The translations under genes were made by a program, and so were the position numbers. Of a stretch of DNA of 64,000 nucleotides, positions 8,301 through 27,940 are shown one piece after another. The stretch is from assembly GCA_963674745.2 (NCBI GenBank), contig CAXXDV010000003.1:1376001-1440000 (forward strand), written 5' to 3'. Positions within the stretch are counted from its first letter, which is position 1. Every line of letters starts with the position of its first letter. Below the pieces are notes generated by a model, which worked only from the letters and a program-made list of their open reading frames with translations, ran no database searches and was not told the origin of the DNA. This DNA comes from Desulfosudaceae bacterium (GTDB taxonomy: Bacteria; Desulfobacterota; Desulfobacteria; Desulfobacterales; Desulfosudaceae).

Positions 8301-8845
8301 AGAATACCGCCACGTAAAGAGAAATCACCCGGTTCCTCTACGATGGCGCTCCGGGAATAGCCGCCATTGGTCAGTTTCTCCAGCAGTCCCGATAAATCAA
8401 CATCTTCGCCGACCATCAGGATTTCAGCAAAATCACACAATTCGGTTTTCGGTAGAAGCCGTTGCAGCAATCCTTCAAGGGACAGAACGAGTACCGACGG
8501 CATAACGCCCTGGGTCATCTGGTATAAAAGGCGAACTCTCGCAGCCGACGTTCGGTTGTGATATGACAGGTGGGTATATGGCAGAATGCTGTAACCCGGG
8601 AAAACTTCCAGAGACCGGTCCCGGGAATCACCCAGAAAAAATGACAGGTCGCTTGACAGTCGCTCGGCTTCGCGGGCATCGGCTGTAACAACGACCACGG
8701 GTGCTCCGGTAAAGTCGGCGATCCGAAAAGCAATATAAGCATCAGCCGAACCGTTTATGCCGCTACATTCAATATGAGAAGCGGACCCCTGAACGGCATC
8801 GAGGAGCTGCTGTATTTTTTTCTCTTGATTTTGAAACATACTCAC
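5312..8845 (-). CDS. mfd: Transcription-repair coupling factor Mfd
   Basis: UvrB-like N-part, CarD-like RID 'VHVDHGIGRY', helicase motifs CGDVGFGKTE, DEEQRFGV, TATPIPRT, QLRGRVGRS, C-terminal TRCF domain. Confidence 0.98.
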   Translation of the reverse strand: MSMFQNQEKKIQQLLDAVQGSASHIECSGINGSADAYIAFRIADFTGAPVVVVTADAREAERLSSDLSFFLGDSRDRSLEVFPGYSILPYTHLSYHNRTSAARVRLLYQMTQGVMPSVLVLSLEGLLQRLLPKTELCDFAEILMVGEDVDLSGLLEKLTNGGYSRSAIVEEPGDFSLRGGILDVFSPFYDDPVRVDFFGDTVDTLHFFSPVSQRRTKTAEEIILLPARETILKKEHTGRYIAAIKKRAAELDLPLSAVREMVERVTTGSAGDDIHRMTPLLYNHLSTLFDYLPGNTCFVLAIPEDIESAAAYHRQQIAENYEASENERKLCVPPEDLFLDWEEAKEMVFQRRTILLRALAKEESPGLPEDKQAKNRIHMDVKSVNSLPATLKYNHDTDNPLKPFAEWLTNNQQAGQTTVITCSNLSREERIQALLAPYGIKPVHVDGFPDVLSGSAGLIRLVPGQVSTGFICPGCGLSLICESDIFGSNRKRRRVRRPTTRAEILELEELKKGDFIVHVDHGIGRYDGMRKIKVENVYGDFLLIRYKYDDRLYLSVDRMDMARKYIGVDDIVPELDKMGGKSWQTAKAKAKKEAERIAKELLTLYARRKVNQGYSFSPADAYFDDFEASFPYDETDDQLNVIEEVLSDMEMTKPMDRLVCGDVGFGKTEIAMRATFKAVCDGKQIAVLVPTTVLAEQHLATFKNRFSDYPVQIACLNRFRSPARQKQIVRDVSDGKIDIVIGTHRLLSKDVSFKDLGLVIMDEEQRFGVKHKEKLKTLRSTVDVLSLTATPIPRTLHMSLIGVRDISVINTPPEDRLAVKTYVCEFDDGIIKAAVRRELKRGGQIYFVHNNINKIWYIANHLQKLVPEVRIGVAHGRLGSDKLEQEMLKFVNKEIDMLVCTRIIESGLDIPSANTIFVNRADKFGLAQIYQLRGRVGRSDEQAYAYLFIPKDTALSKDAQKRLKVLMEHSDLGSGFQIAMNDLQIRGGGSVLGVSQSGHIAAVGYDMFLQLMEKTVAELKGEPAEGPVDAEINIPLSAFISDEYIPAIDQRMSIYRRLARARTTGDINSVKEELTDRYGRMPVETENLLLKILLKVFAVRAGIKRVELTDSYLALYLGPDRLSSHPVIQEILSEKQLPFETLSEQAFKVNLPPKKRRNGIVFARNLLKDITYRVNNK

Positions 8846-8880
8846 GTTATTTTCTTTTTCTATTATGATAAGTCAGATCG

Positions 8881-8956
<76 letters not shown>

Positions 8957-9109
8957 TCTTTTCTTCGTCCTTTATCCAGTAAACTCAATCCATTTCTTCC
9001 GCACCAATAACCTGTCGCATGAAAGATATTATTGCCATCCGGGCAAATGTGAATTATGATAATGGATTAATGATGAATGATCATCAACCATAAAAAATAA
9101 ATACTGAAA

Positions 9110-11287
9110 ATGAATCGTTTTGCCTATCGCACTACAGGGCTGGCCATCAAAACGCTTTCCGGGCTGATTAAACCGAGGGTCAGGATCTACGAACAGGAGA
9201 ATATCCCCACGGATAGCTCTATTATCTTTGTCATTAATCATTTCACCCGAGCAGAAACGCTTCTGCTACCCTATTACATCAATAAAATTACCGGCCGGCA
9301 AATCTGGTCTCTGGCCGATCATGGCCTTTTCAGGGGTGGCCTGGGCATGTTTCTTGAGAGGGTTGGTGCCGTTTCCACCGGTGATCCGGACCGGGACAAG
9401 CTGATCGTCAAAACCCTGCTGACAAATGAAGCCTCGTGGATCATTTTCCCAGAAGGCCGAATGGTCAAAAATAAAAAAATTTATGATGTTGTCGATCAGA
9501 AGGGTCAGTATATCGTTTCCTCTTCGGTAGGGAAGCACCCACCCCATACCGGTGCGGCTACCCTTGCTTTGAGAACCGAATTCTACAGAAACCGCATCGG
9601 AAAAATGCTGGAAATTTATCCGGATGAGGCCCGGCGGCTTCTGGATCTTTATCAGATTGATTCCTTCGAGAGCATAAAAGAAAACAAAACCCTGATCGTT
9701 CCGGTAAACATTACCTATTACCCCATCAGGGCCAAAGAAAATATCGTCAGCAGCCTGGCCGGCCGGCTGTTTGAGAACCTTTCCTTACGTGCTGTTGACG
9801 AGTTGCAGGCCGAAGGTACCCTGCTGCTTTCCGACACGGACATTGATATCCGATTTGGCGAACCCATTGACGTCAGCGGTTTTTTAAAAGCGAAAATCAT
9901 CCAGGAAAACATCGCGTTACGGGCGAAAATCGGTTTTAACGACTCCATCGCCGCCAAGAATATGTTGCGCGCCATCGCGGTCGAAATCATGGAACGATAC
10001 ATGTCGTCGATTTACAATATGACGACGGTTAACCATGATCATATTTTCGCGTCGATTTTAAAACATATTTCCGGAGACCGGATCCAGGAAGACGATTTGA
10101 AGCGAAGAGCCTTTCTGGCCATTACGGCAGTTGATTCACTGACCACCCGGACATTCAAACACTCTTCATTAATGCAGGACCAGAGTCATCTGCTGACCGA
10201 TGACAGGCACAAGAAATACGCCAATTTTGTTGCTATTGCGGAAGAAACCGGGGCTGTTAAAAGAGAAGACGGCTGGGTAATCAAAGCGGTTGACATGGAT
10301 GCTCTGCCGGATTTTCACAGTGCCCGCATGACCAATCCCATAACGGTCATTGCCAATGAAGTGGAGCCATTGGCAGATCTTCAGGATTCCATTAATGACC
10401 TGGCCGGAGCCACTTACCAGGAAATAAGGCAGCTGATATCCACCCACCTGATAACAACTGCTGATTTCGAGTTTGAAAAAGATTACGCCAATTTTTCCAT
10501 TCAAGGTGAATCCAAGAAAAAGAACGTTGGCCGGCCATATTTATTAAAAGGCGCCTCTCCGCGCCTGGGGGTCGTTCTGGTACATGGATACATGGCCGCA
10601 CCGCTGGAGGTAAGGGCCCTGGCCACCTACTTGAATGATATGGGCATTACCGTTTATGCCCCCCGTTTAAAGGGTCACGGTACTTCTCCTGTGGATCTGG
10701 CAAAATGTCAGTTTACCGAATGGATAGAATCCGTGGAAAAAGGCTACGCCATCATCAGGAACCGTTGCGACAAGGTGATTGCCGGCGGATTTTCCATGGG
10801 TGCCGGTCTTGTGATTGATCTGACGTCAAGAGTGACCGATCTTTCCGGAATGTTCGCTATTGCGCCGCCACTCAAGCTCCAGAACTTCTCCAGTAATTTC
10901 GTCCCAGCCGTAAACCTGTGGAACCGGCTGCTCAAACGGATCAACATTGATCGAAACAGAATGGAGTATGTTGAAAATACGCCTGAAAACCCGGCTATCA
11001 ATTATATCCGTAACCCCATTGCCGCAGTCGCCGAAATGGGCCGCTTGATGGATACGTTGGAATCAAAACTGTCTTCGATTACCGTCCCGGCACTGGTCAT
11101 CCAGTCCCAGGCGGACCCGGTGGTCGACCCTAAAGGATCCAGAACGATTTTCAAAAAACTCGCTTCAGTTGATAAAGAATATCTCCTGATCAATTATCCA
11201 CACCACGGTATTGTCAATGGGGAAGGATCGGAACGCGTCTTTAAGGCAGTCGGCGATTTTGTCAAGAAACTGATGACAGACGCTTGA
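9110..11287 (+). CDS. Glycerolipid acyltransferase (PlsB/PlsC-like) fused to an alpha/beta carboxylesterase
   Basis: NHFTRAE (HX4D-like, with E), IIFPEGR; C-terminal VHGY oxyanion motif, GFSMG nucleophile, DPVV and HHG triad candidates. Confidence 0.8.
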   Translation: MNRFAYRTTGLAIKTLSGLIKPRVRIYEQENIPTDSSIIFVINHFTRAETLLLPYYINKITGRQIWSLADHGLFRGGLGMFLERVGAVSTGDPDRDKLIVKTLLTNEASWIIFPEGRMVKNKKIYDVVDQKGQYIVSSSVGKHPPHTGAATLALRTEFYRNRIGKMLEIYPDEARRLLDLYQIDSFESIKENKTLIVPVNITYYPIRAKENIVSSLAGRLFENLSLRAVDELQAEGTLLLSDTDIDIRFGEPIDVSGFLKAKIIQENIALRAKIGFNDSIAAKNMLRAIAVEIMERYMSSIYNMTTVNHDHIFASILKHISGDRIQEDDLKRRAFLAITAVDSLTTRTFKHSSLMQDQSHLLTDDRHKKYANFVAIAEETGAVKREDGWVIKAVDMDALPDFHSARMTNPITVIANEVEPLADLQDSINDLAGATYQEIRQLISTHLITTADFEFEKDYANFSIQGESKKKNVGRPYLLKGASPRLGVVLVHGYMAAPLEVRALATYLNDMGITVYAPRLKGHGTSPVDLAKCQFTEWIESVEKGYAIIRNRCDKVIAGGFSMGAGLVIDLTSRVTDLSGMFAIAPPLKLQNFSSNFVPAVNLWNRLLKRINIDRNRMEYVENTPENPAINYIRNPIAAVAEMGRLMDTLESKLSSITVPALVIQSQADPVVDPKGSRTIFKKLASVDKEYLLINYPHHGIVNGEGSERVFKAVGDFVKKLMTDA

Positions 11288-11389
11288 ACCGGGACGTCAC
11301 CACCTGCCTGCCTGACCGTTAAGAATTCACCTGAGAAAAACAATTAAAACAAAACGATGTCATAAGAATACATTCAAAGGAGGAAACAT

Positions 11390-13081
11390 ATGAAGTTGTT
11401 AATTATCGGCGGCGTCGCCGGCGGAGCCACAGCAGCTGCCAGAGCACGCAGACTGAACGAAGATGCCGAGATCGTTCTTTTTGAACGCGGTGAGTTTATC
11501 TCTTTTGCCAATTGCGGGCTGCCCTATTACATCGGTCAGATTATCAAGGAGCAGGAAGACCTGCTGGTGATCACGGTCGAGGATTTTGTTAAACGTTATG
11601 CGGTTGATGTCCGGGTATTTACAGAAGTAACGGCTATTGATCGGGAAAATCGACAGGTCGCAATCAAAAATCTCAAAACAGGAGAAACCTATCAGGAGTC
11701 TTTTGATAAAATAATTCTCTCTCCGGGCGCTGAGCCGATAAAACCACCCCTTGAGGGGATTGATCTGGACAATATCTTTAACCTTCGTAACATTCCCGAT
11801 TCCGTAAAAATTAAAAACTTTGTCGATACCCATAGCCCGGAAGCTGCTGTTGTCGTGGGCGGCGGGTTTATCGGCCTGGAAATGGCGGAAAACCTGGCCA
11901 TCCGCGGTATTAAAACCACTATTGTAGAAAAGTTGGACCAGGTGATGCCCTCACTCGATGTGGAGATGGCGGCGTTCATGTCCGCCCATCTAAAAGAAAA
12001 AAACGTGGAGTGTATCCTCGGTGACGGCATCAGCGCCTTTTCAAAGGACAATGGACGTTTGGTCGTACATACGGAAAAAGGACAGAAACTGTCCTGTGAC
12101 CTGGTGATACTGTCCATCGGTGTCCGTCCTGAAAACCGGCTGGCAAGAGAAGCCGGGCTGGAAATCAGCGGTCGTGGCGGTGTCAAGGTCAGCGCCACCA
12201 TGCAGACATCGGATCCGGATATTTTTGCCGTCGGCGATGCGGTTGAAATAATGGATCACGTCACCGGCTTTCGTACCATGACGCCGCTGGCCGGCCCGGC
12301 CAATAAACAGGGGCGTATCGCGGCTGACAATGTTATGGGACGACGAAGTATTTTCCGCGGGACACTGGGCACGTCAGTCGTAAAACTGTTTGACATGACC
12401 GTGGCTTCTACCGGTGCCAATGAGCGTTTTTTGACCGCTAACAATGTTCCCTTTCTGGTCAGTTACACCCATTCCGGCTCCCATGCCTCATATTATCCGG
12501 GTGCGGAAATGATGGCCATCAAGCTGTTTTTCTCTCCGGGCAGCGGGAAGGTTCTGGGCGCCCAGATTATCGGTCAGGACGGCGTGGATAAACGGATCGA
12601 TGTCATTGCCACCGCCATTCATGGATCCATGACGGTTTACGATCTGGAAGAACTGGAACTGGCCTACGCGCCGCCTTATTCATCCGCCAAGGATCCGGTC
12701 AATATTGCCGGCTTTGTGGCATCCAATTTACTCAAGGGTGATGTACGGAATATCAACTGGCATGAATTTATCGACATTGATCCGGAAGGCATTGAGTTGA
12801 TCGACCTCAGAAACAAGGATGAACTGGAAGAAGCCGGCGTCGTCCCCGGGGCGATGCATATCCCCCTGCCTGAACTCAGAAACCATTTAAGTAAACTGGA
12901 TCCGCACAAGCAATACATAACGTTCTGCGCCATTGGTTTGCGGGGATACGTGGCTTACCGCATCATGTCACAGAAGGGATACAATGTTCAGAACTTAAGT
13001 GGCGGATATAAAACCCTTATGGGTGCCAAGGGGAAAATTATGGCCGAGTCCGCCCGGACTCAGCTCTGGCGTTCGGAATAG
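11390..13081 (+). CDS. CoA-disulfide/persulfide reductase with C-terminal rhodanese domain
   Basis: GGVAGG FAD motif, SFANCGLPY redox Cys, GGGFIGLE NADH motif, YAPPYS, rhodanese 'FCAIGLRG...NLSGGY'; SD AAGGAGG upstream. Confidence 0.92.
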   Translation: MKLLIIGGVAGGATAAARARRLNEDAEIVLFERGEFISFANCGLPYYIGQIIKEQEDLLVITVEDFVKRYAVDVRVFTEVTAIDRENRQVAIKNLKTGETYQESFDKIILSPGAEPIKPPLEGIDLDNIFNLRNIPDSVKIKNFVDTHSPEAAVVVGGGFIGLEMAENLAIRGIKTTIVEKLDQVMPSLDVEMAAFMSAHLKEKNVECILGDGISAFSKDNGRLVVHTEKGQKLSCDLVILSIGVRPENRLAREAGLEISGRGGVKVSATMQTSDPDIFAVGDAVEIMDHVTGFRTMTPLAGPANKQGRIAADNVMGRRSIFRGTLGTSVVKLFDMTVASTGANERFLTANNVPFLVSYTHSGSHASYYPGAEMMAIKLFFSPGSGKVLGAQIIGQDGVDKRIDVIATAIHGSMTVYDLEELELAYAPPYSSAKDPVNIAGFVASNLLKGDVRNINWHEFIDIDPEGIELIDLRNKDELEEAGVVPGAMHIPLPELRNHLSKLDPHKQYITFCAIGLRGYVAYRIMSQKGYNVQNLSGGYKTLMGAKGKIMAESARTQLWRSE

Positions 13082-17932: not shown

Positions 17933-19300
17933 ATGCAGCCTCTTCCTCCACATATGCATGTCTACATCATACCCTTCCAGGATAAGTTTGTCGTCTACAG
18001 ACCTTTAAAAAGATTAGCCTTTATTGCTAATTCGGCCATGGTTAATCTTATTGCGAAGATACAGGAGAAGTCACATTTTAAGGGCCTGCCGACGCACAGT
18101 GAAGCCATGGCCTTTCTCGATGCCGTCGGTTTTTTTGAACCCGACCCCCGGCCTACCCAACCGCCGCCAGTTCAAGAACCGTATTTACCGACAGTCGCGG
18201 TCGTGTTTTTAACCACTGACTGTAATTGTAAATGTGTTTATTGTTATGCTTCAGCAGGCGGTGTGCCGGCCACGGAAACGCTTCCCGTCAGGCTGGGATA
18301 TCGCACCATTGATGTTGTCTGTGAAAATGCCCTGCTGACCGGAAAAAACAAATTCACGTTGAGCTTTCATGGCGGCGGCGAACCGACGATGGCGTCGAAA
18401 AAAATGAAACAGCTGATAAATTACGCCAGAAAAAAAGAAGTACCCTGTCATGCCAATCTTACAACCAACGGTTGCTGGTCTGCGGCTGACAGGGAGTGGA
18501 TTCTGAACAATTTTGACGATGTCAGCCTCTCTTTTGACGGTTTGCGTGAAATTCAGGACCGCCAGCGTCCGCTTGCAAGCGGTAGAGGAACATATGACCT
18601 GGTTATGGCGAGCATTACGGCCATGGACCAGCGGCAGTTGTCTTATGGTATCCGAATGACGGTAACAGAGGACTCTGTCGATCAATTGCCGGAAAACATG
18701 AAATTCCTTTGCAGCAGCACGGATTGCCGGGTTTTCCAGGTGGAGCCGGCGTCCAATCATGGACGGGCAATGCAGGGCCATAATGCCCTGACCCAATACG
18801 ATCGATTTGCCCGGGCCTTTCTTAAAGCATATGATATTGCCGTGGCTGCGGGCAGGCACATGTATTATTCAGGCGCAAGGCCCTGGGTGATTACCCCACG
18901 TTTTTGTCAGGCCCCGGAAAATGCTTTGATTGTGGGTACGGACGGGTTTCTCACGGCATGTTATGAAGTGTGCAGTAGAGACCACGAACTGGCGGGGCTG
19001 TTTTGCTTTGGTGATATCTCCGAAAACGGGATAATGTCCGTGCACGAAAAGACCCGGCAGGCGCTTTTTGAAAAAATTGAACAGCGAAAAAAACAGTGCC
19101 GGGACTGCTTTTGTTTCTGGCATTGTGCCGGAGACTGCCCGTCCAAGACAATGACGGCGGATGGCAGGGGGCACCTTCGGTTTGACCGACGGTGTGATTT
19201 GAACCGCCATATTACCCGGGAACTGATTATACGCAACATTACAAACGGTAACGGTATCTGGCAGGGGGCATCAGAAGAACAGATGCTTGTCGCCTGTTAG
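17933..19300 (+). CDS. Radical SAM/SPASM peptide-maturase-like enzyme 1
   Basis: CNCKCVYC (CxxxCxxC), FHGGGEP, TTNG, SFDG; SPASM: FC...DGFLTAC...CRDCFCFWHCAGDC...C. Confidence 0.92.
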   Translation: MQPLPPHMHVYIIPFQDKFVVYRPLKRLAFIANSAMVNLIAKIQEKSHFKGLPTHSEAMAFLDAVGFFEPDPRPTQPPPVQEPYLPTVAVVFLTTDCNCKCVYCYASAGGVPATETLPVRLGYRTIDVVCENALLTGKNKFTLSFHGGGEPTMASKKMKQLINYARKKEVPCHANLTTNGCWSAADREWILNNFDDVSLSFDGLREIQDRQRPLASGRGTYDLVMASITAMDQRQLSYGIRMTVTEDSVDQLPENMKFLCSSTDCRVFQVEPASNHGRAMQGHNALTQYDRFARAFLKAYDIAVAAGRHMYYSGARPWVITPRFCQAPENALIVGTDGFLTACYEVCSRDHELAGLFCFGDISENGIMSVHEKTRQALFEKIEQRKKQCRDCFCFWHCAGDCPSKTMTADGRGHLRFDRRCDLNRHITRELIIRNITNGNGIWQGASEEQMLVAC

Positions 19301-19327: not shown

Positions 19328-19780
19328 ATGGAAAAGAGAAGGAATCCTGGCGCTGCGACAACATCCCGCCGGAACTTTTTCCGTCGTTTTTTTACTGAAA
19401 CGATAAGCCTTATTGAGGAAGCCAGGGGAACCCCCCAGCTCAACCTGAATGATATCGCAGCGCTCCCGGATGAGATTTTCGGTAGTATCATTCCGGTTTT
19501 CAGTGAACATACCCGGTATCGGATTGAAGGTGATCGGCTACTCATCGTCGATGAAAAGAGCGCTATTTTCAGAAAAGCCTATCAATTTACGCCTCGAGAG
19601 CTGTATGTTTTGAATCAATTTGACGGACATAATACATTAAATTCAATTGTTTATGTAATTATAAACCAGTTTGACCAAGATGCCGAAGCAGCGTTTCAGC
19701 AGGTAAAAAATCTGTTCTGCACCATGGCCGGATACGCGGTATGCCATCCGCTGCATGAAACACCGGAGCAGCAAAAATGA
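19328..19780 (+). CDS. PqqD/RRE-like protein with an N-terminal SRRNFF extension
   Basis: C-terminal 'RLLIVDEK...YQFTPRELYVLNQFDGHNTLNSIVYVIINQFDQDAEAAFQQVKNLFCTM' fits the PqqD/RRE winged-helix pattern; SD AAGGA; ATGA overlap with the next gene. Confidence 0.7.
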   Translation: MEKRRNPGAATTSRRNFFRRFFTETISLIEEARGTPQLNLNDIAALPDEIFGSIIPVFSEHTRYRIEGDRLLIVDEKSAIFRKAYQFTPRELYVLNQFDGHNTLNSIVYVIINQFDQDAEAAFQQVKNLFCTMAGYAVCHPLHETPEQQK

Positions 19781-21162
19781 ACCGGGCAGATATTGCCGAT
19801 ATTTACGCCATTTCCTTACCAGAAGAGAAGTTTCTGCTATATTCCCCGTTAAGGGGTTTTTCCGCGCTCGTAAACCGGAAAGCCCTTGATGAATCCGCCC
19901 GGTTTGTAACGGGAAAACCATGCCGAAACAGGGGGGCGTCACCGCTTGACGCTATTTTCAATGCGCTTTCAACGCCTGCTTTACCCCCTCCATTTGAACC
20001 GGATAAGCTGCTGGCTCCTTTTTTTCTGGGTATTATTCCCACGCGGGCCTGTAACATGTCCTGCCGTTATTGCGATTTCGGGGACCAATCGCCGGGTTCG
20101 CAGTCCATGGATTTACGGACTGCTGTAGCTGCTGTGGACTGGATGGCGGACCATGTTTATCGGACAGGCCGGGATAAACTGGAAATCCACTTTTTCGGCG
20201 GAGAGCCGTTTGTCGCCCCAGATGTCGTGGACGCCGCCGTTTACCGGGCGCGGGCTGTTGCCGGGGAAAAAGGGATACCCCTTCATCTGGAAGTGTCCAC
20301 CAACGGTCTATTTGATGAGAACAGGGCCGTTTTTGTGGGGGATTACTTTAATTCAGCTGTTATTTCCCTGGATGGATTCCGGGAAACACATGACCGTCAC
20401 CGCCCCCTAGACGGGAGCAGAGGTAGTTTTGATGGTGTCGTAGAGTCAATTCGGCGGCTTTCGATGACGCCGGCAGAGGTTTGTCTGCGGTGTTGTATAT
20501 CGCATATAAACGTGGACAGGATGGAAGCGATTGCCCGGTGGTTCTGTGAAGAATTAAAACCATCTGTCGTAAACTTTGAAATCGTAAGTTCAAATTCAAA
20601 ATCAGATGCGGCGGGATTGTTTCCGCCCGACCCGTATCGTTTTGCCGGTAATTGCGTTCGGGCCTGTCGTCTTGTCCGACAATTCGGGATTCAAGCGGTT
20701 TACGCGTCGGCATCTATTGATACCGTGCGTCGAAGTTTTTGTCCCATGGGAAAGGATACCTTGATCGTTTCTCCCGATGGACGGATCAGCAGTTGTTATC
20801 TGCCGGACAGGGACTGGAAGAAAAAGGGACTGGATCTTGATGTGGGACGTCTGAGAACGGATGGTTCAATGGATATTGACATGGCTGCAATCCAGCGTCT
20901 GCGCCGGATAACCGCCGATAAGCCCGGCTGTGAAAAATGCTTTTGCAAATGGACTTGCGCCGGAGGCTGTCATGTCAGGCAATACGATCAGGCAGCTGTT
21001 TCTACAAAAAATGATTTTTGTGTTCAGACGCGCCTTATTACCGCCTGTTCTCTGCTGGACAACCTTGGATTCCGCGATCTGGCCGATTCGCTTCTGGCGG
21101 ATATGGACGCGATGGAAACTCTGGCGTTGAATCCATCGGATTATTTGGTACAATTCACATGA
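19777..21162 (+). CDS. Radical SAM/SPASM peptide-maturase-like enzyme 2
   Basis: CNMSCRYC, FFGGEPF, STNG, ISLDG; SPASM FC...PDGRISSC...CEKCFCKWTCAGGC...FC. Confidence 0.92.
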   Translation: MNRADIADIYAISLPEEKFLLYSPLRGFSALVNRKALDESARFVTGKPCRNRGASPLDAIFNALSTPALPPPFEPDKLLAPFFLGIIPTRACNMSCRYCDFGDQSPGSQSMDLRTAVAAVDWMADHVYRTGRDKLEIHFFGGEPFVAPDVVDAAVYRARAVAGEKGIPLHLEVSTNGLFDENRAVFVGDYFNSAVISLDGFRETHDRHRPLDGSRGSFDGVVESIRRLSMTPAEVCLRCCISHINVDRMEAIARWFCEELKPSVVNFEIVSSNSKSDAAGLFPPDPYRFAGNCVRACRLVRQFGIQAVYASASIDTVRRSFCPMGKDTLIVSPDGRISSCYLPDRDWKKKGLDLDVGRLRTDGSMDIDMAAIQRLRRITADKPGCEKCFCKWTCAGGCHVRQYDQAAVSTKNDFCVQTRLITACSLLDNLGFRDLADSLLADMDAMETLALNPSDYLVQFT

Positions 21163-21196: not shown

Positions 21197-22822
21197 ATGG
21201 ATGACTCTAGAAAAGATGATCGCTTGAAGCAAGTGCCCGAGAATCCGGATGAAAAACCTGAGGTGTACGCGGTCTCAATGAAAAAAAAGAGGGTTTCATT
21301 AAGCCGTCGTGCTTTTTTGGGCAGTATCGGTACCGGCGCGCTGCTGACCGCCTGTGCTGAACTAAATCCTCAAAAAAACGGATGTGTCGACAAAACAGCC
21401 GGCCGGCCGGGGGGTGTTTCACAATTACCGTCGGAACCGGTAAAAGAAGTGTATGAGTGGTGCGAAAATTTTAATACCCATTCAAATTCCGTCAATGCCC
21501 TGGCTGTCAGCCCGAATGGCCGGATGCTGGTGTCGGGAAGCGCCGACACAACGATCAAATTATGGTCTCTCCCCGGGGGAAAGCTCCTGAAAATCTTAAA
21601 GGGGCATTCAAATGTTGTAAATACGGTAGCCGTCAGTCCGGACGGCAAGCTGCTGGCTTCCGGAAGCGGCGGTAAGACTGTCAGGCTGTGGTCTCTTAAA
21701 AATGGCCGGGGGCTGCTTTCTTTGAAAGGGCATTCAGCGTTTGTCAAGTCTGTTGCCTTCAGCCCGGATGGCCGGCTGCTGGCTTCCGGAAGCGGAGACA
21801 AAACCATTAAGTTGTGGTCTCTGCCGGAGGGGAAACTGCTGAAAACCCTGACGGGACATTCGAGTTATGTGTATGCGGTTGCCTTCAGCCCGGACGGTAA
21901 ATTTCTAATATCCGGAAGCGCTGACAAAACCATCCGGTTGTGGTCTTTGCCGGACGCAATGCTGTCACAAACCCTGACAGGGCATTCCGACTATGTCAAC
22001 TCACTGGTTGTCGGTTCGGACAGCCGGCTCCTGATATCGGGAAGCTGTGACAGAACGATTAAACTGTGGTCTTTGCCGGACGGGGGGCTGTTGCAAACCC
22101 TGGCAGGTCATTCCGGCTGGATCAATACTTTAGCGATCAGCCTGTGCGGACATCTGCTGGCGTCGGGAAGTGCTGATAAAACGGTAAGAATATGGTCCCT
22201 GCCGGAGGGTAAACCGCTTCTGGTGATGATGGGCCAGGATTTGCCGATAAAATCCGTGGTAATCAACCCGGAAGGGAATTTGTTAATATCGGCCGGTAGT
22301 GACAAAACCATTACCGTATGGACGCTTCCGGATGGATCCCCCAGTTGGTGCTTTTCCGATCCTGCCTTAACCGCGCCGCAGGAGATGAAAACCTTTCGTC
22401 AGATGGGATTTTGCACCCGGATCCTGCCCTGTGGCGCACAGATACCGCCGGGGGCTGTTTGCACTTGTAATTGTGTGGCAGCGGCCTCTATCCACAAGGG
22501 GCCTGAAACGATCTGTATTTGTGATACCATCGCCGTCCCGGCCTTCAAAACGCTGCCGGGAAATACGGTGTGTGTCTGCAACACAATTTTAGTCGGCACG
22601 GGTTGTATCCCCAAGAATCATGAACGGCACATGTCAGGGAAGTCCTGTACCTGCAATACTATTTGTACCTGTGATACGGTGTCGAGGGCCGGTCTTCCTT
22701 GTTCCCGTTATGCTGTAGGCGGCCACACAAAACAGACGACCGGAACGACTTGTACCTGCGATACCATCTGCACCTGCGATACGGTTTCAACAGGAGGCGG
22801 GCATTACTGGTATCCCACTTAA
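21197..22822 (+). CDS. Tat-lipoprotein WD40 beta-propeller with a Cys-rich repeat tail (candidate substrate of the rSAM operon)
   Basis: SRRAFL + hydrophobic stretch + LTAC lipobox (Cys53); seven 42-aa GH...W repeats; tail with 7 CxC[DN]x[IV] units ending GGGHYWYPT; SD GAGG. Confidence 0.88.
   Translation: MDDSRKDDRLKQVPENPDEKPEVYAVSMKKKRVSLSRRAFLGSIGTGALLTACAELNPQKNGCVDKTAGRPGGVSQLPSEPVKEVYEWCENFNTHSNSVNALAVSPNGRMLVSGSADTTIKLWSLPGGKLLKILKGHSNVVNTVAVSPDGKLLASGSGGKTVRLWSLKNGRGLLSLKGHSAFVKSVAFSPDGRLLASGSGDKTIKLWSLPEGKLLKTLTGHSSYVYAVAFSPDGKFLISGSADKTIRLWSLPDAMLSQTLTGHSDYVNSLVVGSDSRLLISGSCDRTIKLWSLPDGGLLQTLAGHSGWINTLAISLCGHLLASGSADKTVRIWSLPEGKPLLVMMGQDLPIKSVVINPEGNLLISAGSDKTITVWTLPDGSPSWCFSDPALTAPQEMKTFRQMGFCTRILPCGAQIPPGAVCTCNCVAAASIHKGPETICICDTIAVPAFKTLPGNTVCVCNTILVGTGCIPKNHERHMSGKSCTCNTICTCDTVSRAGLPCSRYAVGGHTKQTTGTTCTCDTICTCDTVSTGGGHYWYPT
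21479..22360 (+). repeat. Seven tandem 126-bp WD40 coding repeats
   Basis: Units such as HSxxVxxVAFSPDGxLLASGSxDKTIKLWSLPxGxLLxTLxG at 42-aa period. Confidence 0.93.
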
Positions 22823-22834
22823 GCCGGACGGCAG

Positions 22835-25672
22835 ATGAATATTTTAACTCCTGCGAATAAAAACGACATAACCGACGATTTCACGGCAGCGGACACTTTT
22901 TCTGTCGGCAATTTTATGCTTAAGGGGAAGGTCCATCCGAAACTGCCTCTGTTTGAACTGCGTTCGGGCGGTCAAAGCGTATTGTATGCGCCCGGAAAAG
23001 TTGCCGTTGTAGATTATCCGAATGCCGAAGCGATCTGCCGGGCATGGTCCGGAGACGGTGTCCTGTCTCCGGGCAGCATTTCCGGTCAGACGGCCCGATG
23101 GCTTGAAACGCATGCGGAAAATGCCCTGAAAAAATGGAAGGCTGTTACCGGCATGCCTTTCCAGCCCGAATGCCTGACCATTTACCCGGGTATTCAGTGC
23201 AACCTGAAATGTGGTTATTGTTACGCGCGGAACCGTGACGTTGATGAAACAGCGGGAAGCAGGTCAGGCCGTCCGGTTATGGCTGATTCGGTTGTGGCTT
23301 CCGCTGCCGCGATTGTAGCGAAAAACTGCGCCGACAAAGGACTTCCGTTTCATCTGGTTCTGCACGGCGGTGGAGAGCCCTCATACTACTTTGATCAGGT
23401 GCGCCGTTATACGGCGATAACCCGCCAGGCTGCCCGGCAGCTCGGGCTGGACTGGTTCGGGTATATCGCCACCAATGGGGTAATGCCTGAAAAAAATGCC
23501 CGGTGGCTGGCTGAAAATTTTACGCGGATCGGACTGTCGTGCGACGGCCCTCCAGATATTCAGGACAGGCAGCGGCCGCTTAAAACTGGCGGCAGAACCT
23601 CGCCACAGGTAAAACAGACCGCGCGTATTTTAACTGAACATGGCGCGGATATGGTTGTCCGCGCCACCCTGACACCCTGGTCTTTTTCTCGTCAGACTGA
23701 AATTGTCACCTATTTTTATGAGCATTTAAATCCATCCGCCATACGTTTTGAACCGGCTTTTCGACTTCGGGATAATGGGCATCCGGGATTCACCGCAGAC
23801 GATGCGTCAATTTTTGTCGAGCATTTTCTGGCTGCCAGGAAGACAGCAGAATCCATGGGATGCCATCTTTCCTTATCCGGTATCCGGCCCGAAGAGATCC
23901 ACGGCCCTTTTTGCGATGTCCTGCGGAATGTCCTGCGTCTGGGACCGGACGGTTCGGCTACGGCCTGTTTTCTGATATCAGATGAAACGGTACCTGTCAG
24001 TTCGCCTTTTTTGATTGGCCGGGCGGACCCGGACACGGGTGATTTTATTTTAGACACCAAAAAGATAGAGGCATTCCGGCGTTCCGTCGCCGTCATACCT
24101 GCCGAATGTGAACAATGCATCAATATCTGTCATTGCGCCCGGGGATGTCCGGACCGGTGTCCGGTTTTAACCGGGTCGCCCGTTGATCCGGAGAATAAAA
24201 ATAATAATAATTTTCTGTGCCGGTTGTATCAAAAACTGGCGCCGGCCCTCATTATGGACGCAGCGGACAGGTTGATAAACAGAGAACAAAAAAAGGCGGT
24301 GACGATACTACCCGATATCGGCATCTCCGATGAAGCCGGCCTTAACCTGAATGATCTGCCGGCTGCCGTAAACAGGGAAGAGATCAGAAAACAGTATGAC
24401 GCGGTGGGCGGTACCTATGATATTACAGCCGGCCGCTTGCCGGAGCCTGCCTGGCGGAAAAAGGGGTTTACCTTCAATGGCCCTGATGCCTGGCATTATC
24501 TGCGTCGGGTTTTACCGGATACGGATCACGCCCGACCGGTGTCTATTTATTTCCATGTCCCGTTTTGTGAACACCGGTGTGCCTTTTGTGACTGCTATGC
24601 CTTTCCCTTCGGGAAAAAAAGGTCCGTAAAAGAAGAGGCCTTTTGCCGGGCGCTTGTAGCTGAAATGCGTTTTTGGTCGGATATTTACCCGATCAGCCGA
24701 CGCCGGGTTACGACCGTCCATTTCGGCGGAGGGACCCCGGGGTGTTTGAATGCTCCTGTGTTTGATCGAATTCTGACGGAATGCCGCGATCTTTTTAAAG
24801 TCCATGAGCAGACGGAATGGGCGCTGGAAACAACCGTTTCTCACATCAGGCAGGAAGATTTGAACCGGTTGGGAAAATTGGGCTTTTCCCGGCTGCATGT
24901 TGGGGTTCAGACCTTAAATGAGGATTTAAGGCAATCCATTGGGAGAAGGACTTCAGCCAAGGATGCTGTCTTCAGGCTGAAAAAGGCCATGGGGGCAGGT
25001 TTTGTTGTTTCCGTAGATATTTTATATGGCCTCCCCGGACAGCGCTTATCGGATGTGCTGAATACCCTGTCGATCCTGATTGACATGGAGATTCACGGTC
25101 TGTCGCTTTACCGTTTCAATGTATCAAAACGGAATCGATGGTATATTAAGCGTTGCCGGGAGTTTAACCCGGATCCGCGTCGTGATTACTTGATGTTTCA
25201 GGCCGCGGAGCAAATGCTGACCAAAGCCGGTTATCGGAAAAACCATTTTGCGCATTTTGCAAAACAAGCGGATCGCAACCTGTATTTCACCTGTCCGCTG
25301 AGGGGGGAAGACCTGCTGGCCATGGGGCCGACGGCAGACGGTTTTTTCGGTAATTATCGATACCGTAACGCGGAATATGCAAGGTATATGAACCAGTTGC
25401 AAAACAAATCAGGCATGCCGGTGCTGCAAGGCTGTCTTGAGGAATCAGACCTTGAGGTCAGGGCGCGTCCGGCGATCCTCGACATTATGGGCAGCCATAT
25501 CCGGAGAAGCGTTCATGAACATCTGGGTATCGACAGTCTGATCAAGAAATGGGAAGACTGTCTGCTGATCGAAAATTTATCCGGCGGAAATGATTTTGCG
25601 TTAACACCGAACGGCTCCTGGTTTGTTAATCAAATGATTGCTGATGTTTTACATGATCTTGAAAGCAGGTGA
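22835..25672 (+). CDS. Double radical-SAM fusion: N-terminal rSAM/SPASM + C-terminal HemN/class C methyltransferase-like rSAM
   Basis: CNLKCGYC, LHGGGEP, SPASM (FC...C; CEQCINICHCARGC); second domain SIYFHVPFCEHRCAFC, TVHFGGGTP, RLHVGVQT, DILYGLPGQ. Confidence 0.9.
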   Translation: MNILTPANKNDITDDFTAADTFSVGNFMLKGKVHPKLPLFELRSGGQSVLYAPGKVAVVDYPNAEAICRAWSGDGVLSPGSISGQTARWLETHAENALKKWKAVTGMPFQPECLTIYPGIQCNLKCGYCYARNRDVDETAGSRSGRPVMADSVVASAAAIVAKNCADKGLPFHLVLHGGGEPSYYFDQVRRYTAITRQAARQLGLDWFGYIATNGVMPEKNARWLAENFTRIGLSCDGPPDIQDRQRPLKTGGRTSPQVKQTARILTEHGADMVVRATLTPWSFSRQTEIVTYFYEHLNPSAIRFEPAFRLRDNGHPGFTADDASIFVEHFLAARKTAESMGCHLSLSGIRPEEIHGPFCDVLRNVLRLGPDGSATACFLISDETVPVSSPFLIGRADPDTGDFILDTKKIEAFRRSVAVIPAECEQCINICHCARGCPDRCPVLTGSPVDPENKNNNNFLCRLYQKLAPALIMDAADRLINREQKKAVTILPDIGISDEAGLNLNDLPAAVNREEIRKQYDAVGGTYDITAGRLPEPAWRKKGFTFNGPDAWHYLRRVLPDTDHARPVSIYFHVPFCEHRCAFCDCYAFPFGKKRSVKEEAFCRALVAEMRFWSDIYPISRRRVTTVHFGGGTPGCLNAPVFDRILTECRDLFKVHEQTEWALETTVSHIRQEDLNRLGKLGFSRLHVGVQTLNEDLRQSIGRRTSAKDAVFRLKKAMGAGFVVSVDILYGLPGQRLSDVLNTLSILIDMEIHGLSLYRFNVSKRNRWYIKRCREFNPDPRRDYLMFQAAEQMLTKAGYRKNHFAHFAKQADRNLYFTCPLRGEDLLAMGPTADGFFGNYRYRNAEYARYMNQLQNKSGMPVLQGCLEESDLEVRARPAILDIMGSHIRRSVHEHLGIDSLIKKWEDCLLIENLSGGNDFALTPNGSWFVNQMIADVLHDLESR

Positions 25673-25946
25673 AGATGGTTCACTTTGATCCTGATGTCGT
25701 CTGGTCTGTTGACTGCCGCGGTTTGTCGCTGGTTCACCGTAAAACAGGTGACCGCGCTTGCCTGGTTTATCCCCAAGCCGCTTTATGGGATCTGTTGAGC
25801 AGAGAGGTGGAAATGACGAGGATCATCCGGATCATGACGGCTCTGACGGCGTTGAGGACCCGGCTGTCCGGCTATGGTGCCGCCGGACCGTCCAGGGCTG
25901 GATTGACGCGGGCTGGATGCTCGAAGACGGGGAAACCGCATCATGA
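25669..25946 (+). pseudogene. PqqD/RRE-like protein interrupted by a 1-nt frameshift near 25848 (real lesion or assembly error)
   Basis: Joining ORF 25669 (to ...IMTALT) with the -1 frame (GVEDPAVRLWCRRTVQGWIDAGWMLEDGETAS*) gives a 92-aa RRE-sized protein with a GTGA overlap upstream and an ATGA overlap downstream. Confidence 0.72.
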
Positions 25947-27940
25947 CGAATCTTTCCCTTACCTCTGAATGTAACCAGAATTGTTCATACTGCTTTGCCG
26001 GGAATATAACGGAAGTCAGCCGTTTTCCCCGCCGGGAGTATGATGGGTTCCTCGCGTTTTTGAGGCGGTCAGGGATCAAGCAGGTCCGGTTGCTGGGCGG
26101 TGAACCCACGCTTCATCCGGACTTTATTTTTTTTGTAGAAGAGGCTTTCCGTCAGGGCTTTCATGTGCTGGTATTTTCAAACGGCATGATGCCTGAAAGC
26201 GCCGTAAAATGTCTTGAAATCCTGCCCCCGGACAAGCTACTGGTTCTGGTAAATACCACCCCTTCCCGGCGTTGGAACATGAACCTACGTGGTCGCCGGA
26301 TCGAGATATTGAAACGTTTGAATCAGAGGGTAATGATCGGTTTAACCATTCACACAACGAACCCTGATATTGATTCCATCTGTTCGTATATTGAAATATT
26401 GAATTTACGCCCCGCCATCCGCCTGGGTCTGGCCCATCCCTGCCCGGACAGCACCAATCAATGGTTGCCTCCCAAGCATTATTGTCTGGTCGGACAAATC
26501 ATAGCCGATTTTATCATTCGGCACCCGGATCTGTCGATCGAGTTTGATTGCGGCTTCGTGCCCTGCATGTTCCCGGACTGGTTTTTTTCACAGTCTGTTT
26601 TCAAACCGGAGGACATCGGGCGCCGCTGCGGGCCGATACCGGACATCTTACCCGATGGCTCAGTAGTGCACTGTTTTCCGTTACGTGCCATATCGAAACT
26701 GACACTGGATCAACTGGCCTGTGCCCGGGCGGCAGGAAAAGAATTGTCGCGAATGGTTGCACCGTATCAGCATACGGGTATTTTCCCGGAATGCGGCTGC
26801 TGTGAATATCGGACGGCGGATCAGTGCTCCGGCGGTTGTATTGCGGCAGCCGGCCGGCGCTTGAGAAGTTCGTCTCAATGCTTTTCTCTGTCAATTCCGC
26901 TCAGCACATCCCTTGCGTCGGATTTTACCGGCAATGAGCCGTCCCCCGGTAACGGGACGCTGGAAGATGTGAACGATGCCAGGGTGGACAAAGATTTCAT
27001 CATTCCGTATATCGATCAGCCACCGCGTTTCTGGGAGGAAATTTATAGCGCCTTTGGCCGGTTTATCAAAAAGGTGTATTGTCCCCTGCCCGGCAGTAAA
27101 ATCGGTTCCGGGCGTCCGCCTCAACCCGATGACCATTTACATCAATTTTTATGTTCCGGTTATTTTGAGACGGATATCCTTATCAACTCGCCTTTTGTTA
27201 AAGAACCGCTGGACGATTTTACAAGCCGTGTCATCAGGGAATTGAGGCTGTTTTCGGAGAAATACCCTTTATCGGGCGTGACGATTGCCAATCGTAAGGT
27301 CGGCAGACGGATCCGGGAGGTATTTCCTGACCTGACCCTGACGGCTTCGGTGTTGATGGATGTTTACGGGCCTGATCAGATAAAACGGATGGGGGATACT
27401 TTTGACTGCCTGGTTCCGTCCAGCAGGATTATGCGTAATATCAATGCCCTGATGCGGATCAGGCAGGCTTTTGCCGGGAAGATACGGTTGATCGCCAATG
27501 AAGCGTGCCTTCCGGGCTGCCCCTACCGTGATCAGCATTTTTACGAGATGAATTCCGACCGTTCGTACCCTGAATCGCTCTGTACCGACCTTCTCGAGGA
27601 AAAACCATGGCTGCGCTTAACCGGTGCCTGGGTTCTTCCGCAGCACCTGTCTTTTTTCGATACCATCTATGATGAACTCAAACTGGCGGGCCGCGTTACC
27701 TTAAAAGATCCGGCAAAGTATATGAAGGTGCTGAATGCTTATATTACCGGGACGCCGCTGACCCCGGATGAAATCGGCGGCGGGCCGGCGTCTGTCCTAG
27801 ACCCTGTTTATATTGATTCTGATTTTTATTTTTCCACGTTAAATTGTGATAAACAATGCCATCAATGCGATATCTGCAGCACATATTATGAAATGCAGAC
27901 CAATCCGGTAGAAAATGAAACAGAAAAAGTGCCTGTATGA
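25943..27940 (+). CDS. Radical SAM/SPASM fused to a peptidase-U32-like Fe-S domain
   Basis: CNQNCSYC, LLGGEPTLHP, SPASM-like C...C...CGCC...CSGGC; from ~aa 352 a U32-like barrel: GVTIAN, LTASV, IANEACLPGCPYRDQH, C, LKLAGR, terminal CDKQCHQCDIC. Confidence 0.8.
   Translation: MTNLSLTSECNQNCSYCFAGNITEVSRFPRREYDGFLAFLRRSGIKQVRLLGGEPTLHPDFIFFVEEAFRQGFHVLVFSNGMMPESAVKCLEILPPDKLLVLVNTTPSRRWNMNLRGRRIEILKRLNQRVMIGLTIHTTNPDIDSICSYIEILNLRPAIRLGLAHPCPDSTNQWLPPKHYCLVGQIIADFIIRHPDLSIEFDCGFVPCMFPDWFFSQSVFKPEDIGRRCGPIPDILPDGSVVHCFPLRAISKLTLDQLACARAAGKELSRMVAPYQHTGIFPECGCCEYRTADQCSGGCIAAAGRRLRSSSQCFSLSIPLSTSLASDFTGNEPSPGNGTLEDVNDARVDKDFIIPYIDQPPRFWEEIYSAFGRFIKKVYCPLPGSKIGSGRPPQPDDHLHQFLCSGYFETDILINSPFVKEPLDDFTSRVIRELRLFSEKYPLSGVTIANRKVGRRIREVFPDLTLTASVLMDVYGPDQIKRMGDTFDCLVPSSRIMRNINALMRIRQAFAGKIRLIANEACLPGCPYRDQHFYEMNSDRSYPESLCTDLLEEKPWLRLTGAWVLPQHLSFFDTIYDELKLAGRVTLKDPAKYMKVLNAYITGTPLTPDEIGGGPASVLDPVYIDSDFYFSTLNCDKQCHQCDICSTYYEMQTNPVENETEKVPV

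Follow-up and report, generated by a model that had tools for sequence, protein, structure and literature searches.

Can the leader by which a maturation enzyme recognises its substrate be part of the signal peptide by which that substrate leaves the cytoplasm? This question is raised by a locus within a stretch of 64,000 nucleotides from a Desulfosudaceae bacterium (contig CAXXDV010000003.1; "the window" denotes this whole stretch), where a seven-gene operon of radical S-adenosylmethionine (radical-SAM) enzymes and accompanying proteins, all encoded on the + strand by tightly spaced or overlapping genes, includes the gene of a 541-residue protein, P0001. A preliminary description of the sequence had noticed a twin-arginine translocation (Tat) signal in P0001 that is preceded by a long extension, and had suggested that this extension doubles as the leader of a peptide that is made by the ribosome and modified after translation (RiPP). 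We find that the extension is a conserved element of a widespread protein family and that, as judged from a model of the complex, it is most likely a leader that docks on the RiPP recognition element (RRE)-like domain of the operon enzyme P0002 for modification of the Cys-rich tail of P0001.

Layout of the precursor P0001

The coding sequence begins at M1, the first start codon after an in-frame upstream stop, with AAAGAGG located 4 bases 5' of the ATG and 34 bases separating the gene from the end of the preceding one. Translation of bases 21197-21355 (+) gives MDDSRKDDRLKQVPENPDEKPEVYAVSMKKKRVSLSRRAFLGSIGTGALLTAC, corresponding to residues 1-53 of P0001, and reproduces exactly the long extension, twin arginine and lipobox that had been read there before. 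The following elements can be distinguished:

21197..22822, + strand: precursor P0001 (541 residues), composed of leader extension, Tat-type lipoprotein signal, linker, seven WD40 repeats and Cys-rich tail
21197..21277, + strand: N-terminal extension, the proposed leader (residues 1-27), conserved in the homologues found through the tail and part of the modelled interface with P0002
21251..21274, + strand: putative core docking motif E19-K-P-E-V-Y-A-V26, from conservation and the complex model
21278..21355, + strand: Tat-type lipoprotein signal (residues 28-53), as read from the sequence
22349..22819, + strand: Cys-rich tail (residues 385-541), the presumed modified core, shared with the homologues of the tail-only search

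The twin arginine, R37-R38 (bases 21305-21310), lies inside S36-R-R-A-F-L41 and has 36 residues ahead of it, the n-region MKKKRVSL directly preceding SRRAFL. It is followed by the h-region G42-A52, which is rich in Gly, Ala and Thr, and by the lipobox L50-T-A-C53. Tat signals have the consensus S/T-R-R-x-F-L-K, after which come an h-region of moderate hydrophobicity and a cleavage site, and the lipobox consensus is L-[ASTVI]-[GAS]-C; S-R-R-A-F-L and L-T-A-C53 of P0001 conform to these two consensus sequences. The body of P0001 contains seven WD40 stretches (PF00400, 269 bits). The ring of a WD40 propeller is closed by its N- and C-terminal strands, which are direct neighbours, and leader and core would then be close to each other in the folded protein. 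The tail, the last 157 residues, contains PCGAQIPPGAVCTCNCV and several CxCDT/CxCNT units and has the C-terminus GGGHYWYPT, its overall pattern being PCGxxIPPGAVCxCNCV, then CxCDT/CxCNT repeats and a C-terminal HYWYP. Neither the extension nor the tail is matched by a model in Pfam or NCBIfam, and P0001 is present once in its own genome.

Conservation of the extension and choice of the start codon

A word-based search with residues 1-95 of P0001 returned 53 candidates, none of them at E<=1e-3, and the family surfaced via the tail only: a search scored on residues 385-541 yielded 18 proteins, nearly all of them WD40 proteins and one containing SH3. P0001 and 17 of the 18 proteins were combined in alignment A1 (18 rows); P0009 was omitted, as neither a leader nor a signal can be seen at its annotated N-terminus, and its start may have been mis-called.

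The tail-found relatives have the N-terminal extension E-x-P-E-[IV]-[YF]-A-[IV] in common. E19 and P21 as well as R37 and F40 of the twin-arginine motif are invariant in 18/18 rows of A1, P21 is also invariant in 16/16 rows of a separate leader alignment, and positions 22-26 are occupied by E/Q, I/V/L, Y/F, A/S/G and I/V/L, respectively. The mean share of the commonest residue is 0.69 in the extension core (residues 19-26) and 0.75 in the twin-arginine motif (35-41); the corresponding values are 0.25 for the linker (54-95) and 0.42 for the WD40 body. In the tail C422, C424 and Y537 are invariant. Within the extension, the PEVYAV segment, which the preliminary description had singled out as an example of the docking site, is thus conserved most strongly. 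The extension is protein-coding, with conservation setting in at its first residues, and its recurrence exceeds chance.

Translation from M28 would produce an ordinary short Tat lipoprotein signal (MKKKRVSLSRRAFLG...), making the upstream 27 codons an artefact of choosing the longest open reading frame (ORF). Although such a signal would look canonical and GAGG precedes the ATG of M28 by 14 bases (12 when counted from GAGGTG), the 27 residues are conserved at the protein level across phyla with E19 and P21 invariant, and M1 has a good AAAGAGG ahead of it. Moreover, Met is found at the position of M28 in 0/17 other rows of A1, all of which have K, R, D or L there, and any Met within the 14 residues before the twin arginine occurs in only 2/36 relatives with the C-terminus HYWYPN. 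As M28 is unconserved and Met is rare before the twin arginine, we rejected the downstream start, which is extremely improbable. The combination of a start at M28 and an unconserved extension, which had been named beforehand as an outcome that would refute the proposal, is the reverse of what the homologues display.

Leader and tail in a widespread protein family

A degenerate tail pattern, based on a narrower tail alignment, was scanned over species-representative genomes and matched 157 stretches, 141 of which were confirmed by tblastn. All locus counts given here rest on the best 80 of these 141 confirmed stretches, corresponding to 72 loci. They span Desulfobacterota, Acidobacteriota, Bacteroidales, Chloroflexota, Planctomycetota, Nitrospirota, Verrucomicrobiota, Armatimonadota, an Oscillospiraceae metagenome-assembled genome (MAG) and others, and contain 92 tail-bearing open frames, with two or three tandem copies in 16/72 loci. 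A signal, defined by the rule [RK]R-x-hydrophobic followed by an h-region, was recognised in 76 of the 92 frames; the 16 others comprise four Bacteroidales-type sequences with R-K, several sequences in which R-R is present and the h-region falls below the hydrophobicity threshold, and frames that are truncated, interrupted or unclear. An E-x-P-type motif precedes the signal in 59/76 signal-bearing frames, and in 52 of these 59 the distance from Pro to the first Arg is exactly 16 residues (29/33, 15/16 and 8/10 by subtype).

Two leader and tail subtypes can be told apart. In the window's subtype the extension comprises about 27-38 residues and the C-terminus is HYWYPN. The second subtype has the N-terminus P-x-F-E-L-x-R-V-Y-x-D-G-S-x-E-E-P-x-I ... 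M-G-R-R-G-F-L and the C-terminus C-T-C-V-P-I-K. A Met two residues before the twin arginine, as in M-G-R-R-G-F-L, occurs in 12/23 sequences of the CTCVPIK subtype (e.g. L028:8741-10141, L061 and L023) and in 7/17 of the group termed 'other'; judged from these sequences, an internal start at M-G-R-R would yield a leaderless, canonical short Tat signal in the second subtype. Members of a third group (L020, L026, L027, L034, L042, L051, L059 and L066) contain the leader, the twin arginine and PxGAxCxCxC; they run 150-190 residues past the Cys motif, reach up to 1026 residues and lack a Cys-rich end at the C-terminus.

When a profile built from only the leader was searched against 1.84 billion cluster representatives, 504 proteins matched at E<=1e-3, of which 39 reached E<=1e-10. 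Among the best 150 of these 504 matches all are N-terminal, the motif is found in 142 and the 16-residue spacing in 132. Again within these best 150, there are 78 proteins with at least 250 residues; 65 of them contain both Cys tail and HYW-P end, and the remaining 13 mostly break off within the WD40 repeats, which is taken to reflect contig ends. Proteins matched through their leader carry the tail too, and therefore leader and tail belong together. The region between them varies, consisting of WD40 repeats, SH3, Pro/Thr-rich linkers or almost nothing, and complete short precursors of 93-244 residues are present among the matches.

Modelled docking of the leader on P0002

The enzyme encoded first in the operon was used as the partner in a model of the complex:

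17933..19300, + strand: P0002, radical-SAM/SPASM maturase 1 (455 residues), with Radical_SAM and SPASM domains
17933-18196, + strand: N-terminal RRE-like domain of P0002 (about residues 1-88), from conservation and the complex model

In the N-terminal domain P14, Y22, P24, F30 and N33 are invariant in 30 homologues. P0002 (30-row alignment) was modelled together with leader residues 1-56 (16-row alignment), giving a complex score of 0.80 (runs 0.79, 0.82 and 0.80), compared with 0.01 for the best of three controls (controls 0.00-0.01). The mark set for this score, which the complex passes, is reached by 116/157 solved complexes and 2/215 mismatched pairs, a tally that is approximate here, since our own alignments were used. 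The runs share at least 91% of their contacts, and the partner has a predicted local distance difference test (pLDDT) value of at least 64.

Confident contacts of the leader comprise residues 4-16 and 19-28 as well as 33, 35, 38, 40 and 41; those of P0002 comprise residues 10-21, 30-44, 56-64 and parts of the SPASM region. In the model leader residues 21-24 (P-E-V-Y) run along residues 31-36 of P0002 with the lowest expected errors, and leader residues 8-10 run along residues 10-12. Such strand pairing is the mode known from solved RRE-leader complexes. The model, made for P0002 only among the operon's four or five possible RREs, thus agrees with the earlier suggestion that the extension is docked by an RRE, placing its residues 4-16 and 19-28 on the RRE-like domain.

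Genes that travel with the precursor

Homologues of the operon's radical-SAM genes are found in 66/72 loci, and in most of the 72 a P0002 homologue is a neighbour of the precursor. Where the second subtype occurs, only a P0002-like enzyme is present, located directly upstream of the precursor; loci of the window's subtype contain a P0002-like enzyme together with relatives of P0003, P0004, P0005 and P0006. Recurrence was determined by all-against-all clustering of the locus ORFs. Only three recurrent families proved to be real, namely the precursors (72 loci), the radical-SAM enzymes (65 loci) and a PqqD-like protein (20 loci), the other recurrent clusters being antisense artefacts. No protease or exporter family recurs across the 72 loci, the best transporter-like cluster being found in 7 of them. 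The absence of a leader peptidase and a transporter, which had been noticed in the window alone, therefore extends to the family as far as recurrent genes are concerned; it holds less well for the operon itself, where a module resembling U32 'peptidases' is present.

At locus L061 three second-subtype precursors stand in tandem (about 8768-12900), with no radical-SAM gene in the 20 kb covered.

Proposed route of maturation and alternative readings

We propose that P0001 is a radical-SAM substrate of protein size whose leader, residues 1-27, is embedded in the n-region of a Tat-type lipoprotein signal. In the cytoplasm the strands around D8-R-L and P21-E-V-Y would dock on the RRE-like N-domain of P0002, and perhaps on other RREs of the operon, and the maturases would then modify the Cys-rich C-terminal tail. 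In the tail, ranthipeptide-like thioethers linking Cys to Asp, Asn or Thr would be the most likely chemistry, with additional radical-SAM steps afterwards. The WD40 protein, folded and modified, would leave via Tat, and signal peptidase II would cut before the lipidated Cys53, taking signal and leader off together. With the leader removed by the signal peptidase, a dedicated leader peptidase and exporter would be unnecessary. We infer the tail chemistry, and likewise Tat export, cleavage at Cys53 and that modification precedes export, the latter three because the operon enzymes have no signal peptides, because radical-SAM chemistry is cytoplasmic and because a folded propeller suits Tat. The whole chain, from a leader within a Tat-type signal through RRE docking, cytoplasmic modification of the tail and Tat export to removal by a general signal peptidase, appears reasonably probable to us.

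The machinery that this route, like the one outlined in the preliminary description, calls for is encoded in the organism's own genome, with TatC at 248.8 bits and the signal peptidase II LspA (PF01252) at 149.1 bits. TatC was detected in 5/5 and 50/50 genomes of family members (56/56 including the window's own) versus 11/14 control genomes. The genomes tested included the Bacteroidales with R-K and the Oscillospiraceae MAG, whose class often has no Tat; absence of TatC from these would have spoken against the Tat route.

Several observations weigh against the proposed route. TatC is common in bacteria, and its presence is therefore weak evidence. On P0001 and on five relatives all curated Tat profiles fall short of their cut-offs: residues 1-95 of P0001 gave no match to PF10518 (Pfam TAT_signal) or TIGR01409 at E<=5 and only 13.1 bits with TIGR02811 (cut-off 48.45), and the relatives scored 14.7-16.4 bits with PF10518 (cut-off 22.7) and 11.6-16.1 with TIGR01409 (cut-off 16.7). 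Short Tat models often miss true signals. At residues 37-38 the twin arginine is unusually distant from the N-terminus, and R-K replaces R-R in four Bacteroidales-type relatives. The lipobox of P0001 is canonical, but a loosely defined lipobox-like pattern occurs in only 40/76 relatives, and hence cleavage by signal peptidase II is not general for the family; a family-wide leader peptidase would be signal peptidase I or II. No radical-SAM gene is present in the examined stretch of L014, L022, L029, L060, L061 and L071 (6/72 loci), and with L061 being one of them the maturase may be encoded elsewhere. The U32-'peptidase'-like module occurs in the operon itself, fused to P0006, and 'no peptidase' is therefore not strictly true. 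The strand-pairing mode was already present in solved RRE-leader complexes, so that the pass of the complex model may partly be memory of them, reflecting likeness rather than binding. The leader might instead, or in addition, bind P0003, P0004 or the protein of the small ORF, as P0002 alone was modelled. Finally, R38, F40 and L41 touch P0002 in the model, and the twin-arginine motif may therefore belong to enzyme recognition; it could be a recognition sequence and not, or not only, a Tat signal.

Taken to its end, the last point leads to a reading in which the twin arginine and the hydrophobic stretch are a maturase-recognition sequence, any export proceeds via Sec or ends in an uncleaved N-in anchor, and the leader is kept in the cytoplasm as a permanent handle. 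The sub-threshold Tat profiles, the fixed 16-residue spacing, which ties twin arginine and docking motif together as one unit, and the contacts of residues 38, 40 and 41 speak for it, as does the fact that cytoplasmic P0003 has an invariant RR-x-F without an export signal, that about half of the relatives have no lipobox-like Cys and that R-K variants occur. On the other hand, S-R-R-x-F-L, a weakly hydrophobic h-region rich in Gly and Ala, and a lipobox or small-residue site form the classical Tat layout, with R37 and F40 invariant and a canonical lipobox in P0001. A folded seven-blade propeller with a cross-linked tail also fits Tat better than Sec, and TatC is present in all 56 genomes tested, including the Oscillospiraceae MAG. 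We therefore regard this reading as unlikely.

The extension could also be an extended Tat n-region that serves targeting or binds a Tat proofreading chaperone and has nothing to do with radical-SAM recruitment. Long conserved n-regions with dedicated chaperones are found in TorA/TorD, NapA/NapD and hydrogenase small subunits, and the 'extended' Tat model of NCBIfam, TIGR04519, gave a sub-threshold match on one relative. No TorD- or NapD-like gene recurs in the loci, however, and the motif co-occurs with the Cys tail and a P0002-type enzyme rather than with cofactor-binding domains. Two leader subtypes pair with two enzyme sets, and the model docks the motif on the RRE-like domain at a score that the controls (0.00-0.01) do not approach, all of which makes a role confined to targeting or proofreading improbable.

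Within the route of leader docking and Tat export that we favour, recognition of the leader and Tat quality control may even be one mechanism. The P0002-type RRE would grip the motif 16 residues before the twin arginine and cover RR-F-L, so that the Tat receptor would see the signal only after the enzymes have released the finished protein; the RR-x-F of P0003 would join in the hand-over, and a general signal peptidase would be the leader peptidase. This mechanism would then apply to a superfamily of at least about 500 clusters at 50% identity, with two leader/tail subtypes, in many phyla and with proteins of 93 to more than 1000 residues. We put forward this extended version tentatively and consider it doubtful in its entirety.

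Other proteins of the operon

The remaining genes of the operon are arranged on both sides of P0001:

19328..19780, + strand: P0003, a discrete RRE protein with PqqD fold (150 residues), from the AlphaFold2 (AF2) model and Foldseek
19777..21162, + strand: P0004, radical-SAM/SPASM maturase 2 (461 residues), with an N-terminal region resembling that of P0002
22835..25672, + strand: P0005 (945 residues), with a SPASM-like radical-SAM half and a HemN/ChuW-HutW-like half, from NCBIfam matches
25669..25968, + strand: a small ORF (99 residues as listed), from tblastn conservation
25943..27940, + strand: P0006 (665 residues), a radical-SAM protein without N-terminal RRE joined to a U32-'peptidase'-like half, from Pfam and Foldseek
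26960-27937, + strand: C-terminal half of P0006, a Cys-rich TIM barrel, from the AF2 model and Foldseek

P0002 and P0004 are 29% identical. The best NCBIfam match of P0002 is NF047865 (PapB; 110.3 bits, cut-off 340), with 100.6 bits for the SCIFF model TIGR03974 (cut-off 425), and P0004 scores 117.3 and 99 bits with the same two models. By these sequence scores both enzymes are relatives of the PapB and SCIFF maturase families, not members.

The AF2 model of P0003 has a mean pLDDT of 79.5, and its best Foldseek match is PqqD (5sxy, E 6.2e-4), followed by the lasso-peptide RREs TbiB1 and B1 crystallised with leaders bound. At the sequence level the match to PF05402 is weak, with 6/13 homologues at E<=1 and none above the cut-off. 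A search of 40 related genomes gave no match for P0003, and a contig search gave one weak partial Saccharicrinis match that was not used. The protein has an N-terminal R-R-x-F-F (residues 13-24), with R14, R15 and F17 invariant in 13/13 rows. This RR-x-F is followed by a short predicted helix, with neither h-region nor cleavage site, and resembles the twin-arginine segment of the presumed substrate.

In P0005 residues 113-451 are PapB-like and residues 555-939 match TIGR04107 (185.7 bits, cut-off 400); several related loci encode the two halves in a gene each. At L004 parts resembling P0006 and P0005 are fused in a reading frame of about 1590 residues.

The small ORF occupies the 270-base 'gap' between P0005 and P0006, with a GTG start overlapping the P0005 stop. 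It has tblastn matches in 13 related loci (E 8e-12 to 9e-3), which lie just upstream of a P0006-like gene where checked and have the segment Y-P-E-A-A-[IL]-W-D-L-L in common. The ORF probably encodes a second discrete RRE-like protein, serving the RRE-less P0006. Neither the small ORF nor the C-terminal half of P0006 has a Pfam or NCBIfam match.

P0006 matches Radical_SAM on residues 5-123. Its C-terminal half, modelled by AF2 with a mean pLDDT of 85, has the U32 peptidase Mk0906 (5d88, E 1.3e-6) as its best Foldseek match, above generic TIM barrels; a profile of this half compared with the sequences in the Protein Data Bank gave nothing meaningful, the fold being recognised by structure only. 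It contains several invariant Cys residues, including a C-terminal CxxxCxxCxxC, and is a stand-alone ORF in L003, L007 and L039. Several U32 proteins are oxygen-independent hydroxylases and not proteases.

Promoter-like sites in the operon number 21 (11.5 +/- 2.9 expected) and terminator-like sites 13 (14.6 +/- 3.9 expected), and no inference was drawn from them. No oxidative enzyme that depends on multinuclear non-heme iron (MNIO, DUF692) is found among the Pfam matches at E<=0.01 of the six large operon proteins (best 25 of 51 matches for P0001).

Discussion

From its layout, its conservation and the modelled docking we infer that P0001 belongs to a signal-peptide-led, RiPP-like maturation system. 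The predictions of the preliminary description that were open to testing here were all borne out. Such a system can be compared with five others.

Bufferins, oxazolins and DAG-RiPPs, the precedents nearest in logic, are MNIO-modified, and their precursors have Sec or lipoprotein signal peptides, as described in the available parts of the respective papers (PMC13056109, PMC12452194). For the DAG-RiPPs these sources report substrates of more than 30 kDa and a lipoprotein signal, together with lipidation and signal peptidase II cleavage (PMC12452194, PMC13056109), the latter two being shown for DybA. As far as this literature extends, the MNIO-modified RiPPs resemble our proposal in that a general export signal replaces the pair of leader peptidase and exporter, the enzymes are cytoplasmic and without signal peptides, the cores are Cys-rich as in P0001 and some precursors are protein-sized (>30 kDa); a partner protein has been suggested to mask the signal until modification is complete. 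In contrast to them, the enzymes here are radical-SAM/SPASM proteins and the signal is of the twin-arginine type, the family of P0001 has a separate conserved docking module of 27-40 residues, set at a fixed distance ahead of the twin arginine, and most often a folded WD40 propeller as its cargo. In the available part of the DAG-RiPP paper (PMC13056109) the terms radical SAM, twin-arginine, Tat and WD40 are absent.

The maturases of ranthipeptides and SCIFF peptides (PapB, CteB/CteA and ScfB), like P0002, have an RRE-like domain ahead of the radical-SAM core, with the leader bound by strand pairing, which in our case is modelled. Their likeness to the system described here extends to the core, where P0001 has abundant Cys adjacent to Asp, Asn or Thr. 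Unlike their substrates, P0001 has 541 residues, and its leader is fused to an export signal and lies more than 380 residues from the core; furthermore, up to five radical-SAM domains are encoded in this one operon, with scores far below the family cut-offs.

A leader-bearing protein with radical-SAM cross-links and a periplasmic end point is also found in the biogenesis of quinohemoprotein amine dehydrogenase (QHNDH). According to the accessible part of the source, QhpD forms Cys-to-Asp/Glu thioethers in QhpC in the cytoplasm, a 28-residue N-terminal leader of QhpC is needed for binding of the enzyme, and the product is periplasmic; the leader is removed by the subtilisin-like protease QhpE, and QhpC exits through the ABC exporter QhpF (PMC7876137). 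In contrast to this use of QhpE and QhpF, neither proteases nor exporters form a recurrent family across the 72 loci studied here, and the QhpD-type model TIGR03906 gives 73.2 and 79.4 bits on the operon enzymes (cut-off 453).

In TorA/TorD, NapA/NapD, the hydrogenase small subunits and the TIGR04519 proteins, an extended n-region is combined with a cytoplasmic partner that binds the signal before Tat export, which is the arrangement proposed for P0001. They differ in that the presumed partner of P0001 is the recognition domain of a peptide-modifying enzyme rather than a REMP, and the place of the 'cofactor' would be taken by several covalent modifications within the tail of P0001 itself.

In Methanococcus voltae thioether (ranthionine) cross-links are introduced into a Cys-rich protein, instead of a short peptide, by the RRE-bearing SPASM radical-SAM enzyme of the CrpA/CrpC pair (PMC13692751). 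As far as its abstract goes, this system differs from that of P0001 in being archaeal and in its precursor family, and the abstract has no mention of an export signal or a Tat-type leader (PMC13692751). Our literature searches, with supplementary files outside their scope, found no radical-SAM system described in which a docking motif lies within a Tat-type signal.

In its usual teaching, RiPP biosynthesis runs from leader to dedicated protease to dedicated exporter. That the roles of protease and exporter can be assumed by a Sec or lipoprotein signal has become known only since 2024-2026, from MNIO-modified peptides. The locus described here suggests that radical-SAM systems reached a similar solution via Tat, with the docking module placed inside the signal peptide. 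If this is true, it accounts for the way in which entire exported proteins can be decorated by oxygen-sensitive chemistry of the cytoplasm, and it provides a signature for mining, E-x-P-E-[IV]-[YF] with 16 residues from Pro to the twin arginine and a CxC[ND] tail, that would reach hundreds of unannotated precursors now labelled 'WD40 repeat protein' or 'hypothetical'. It would also offer a testable model for how premature export of an unmodified Tat substrate is blocked. Should leader recognition and Tat quality control indeed be one mechanism, the family would represent 'Tat-leader' radical-SAM-matured proteins, in which RiPP chemistry is applied to folded, exported proteins.

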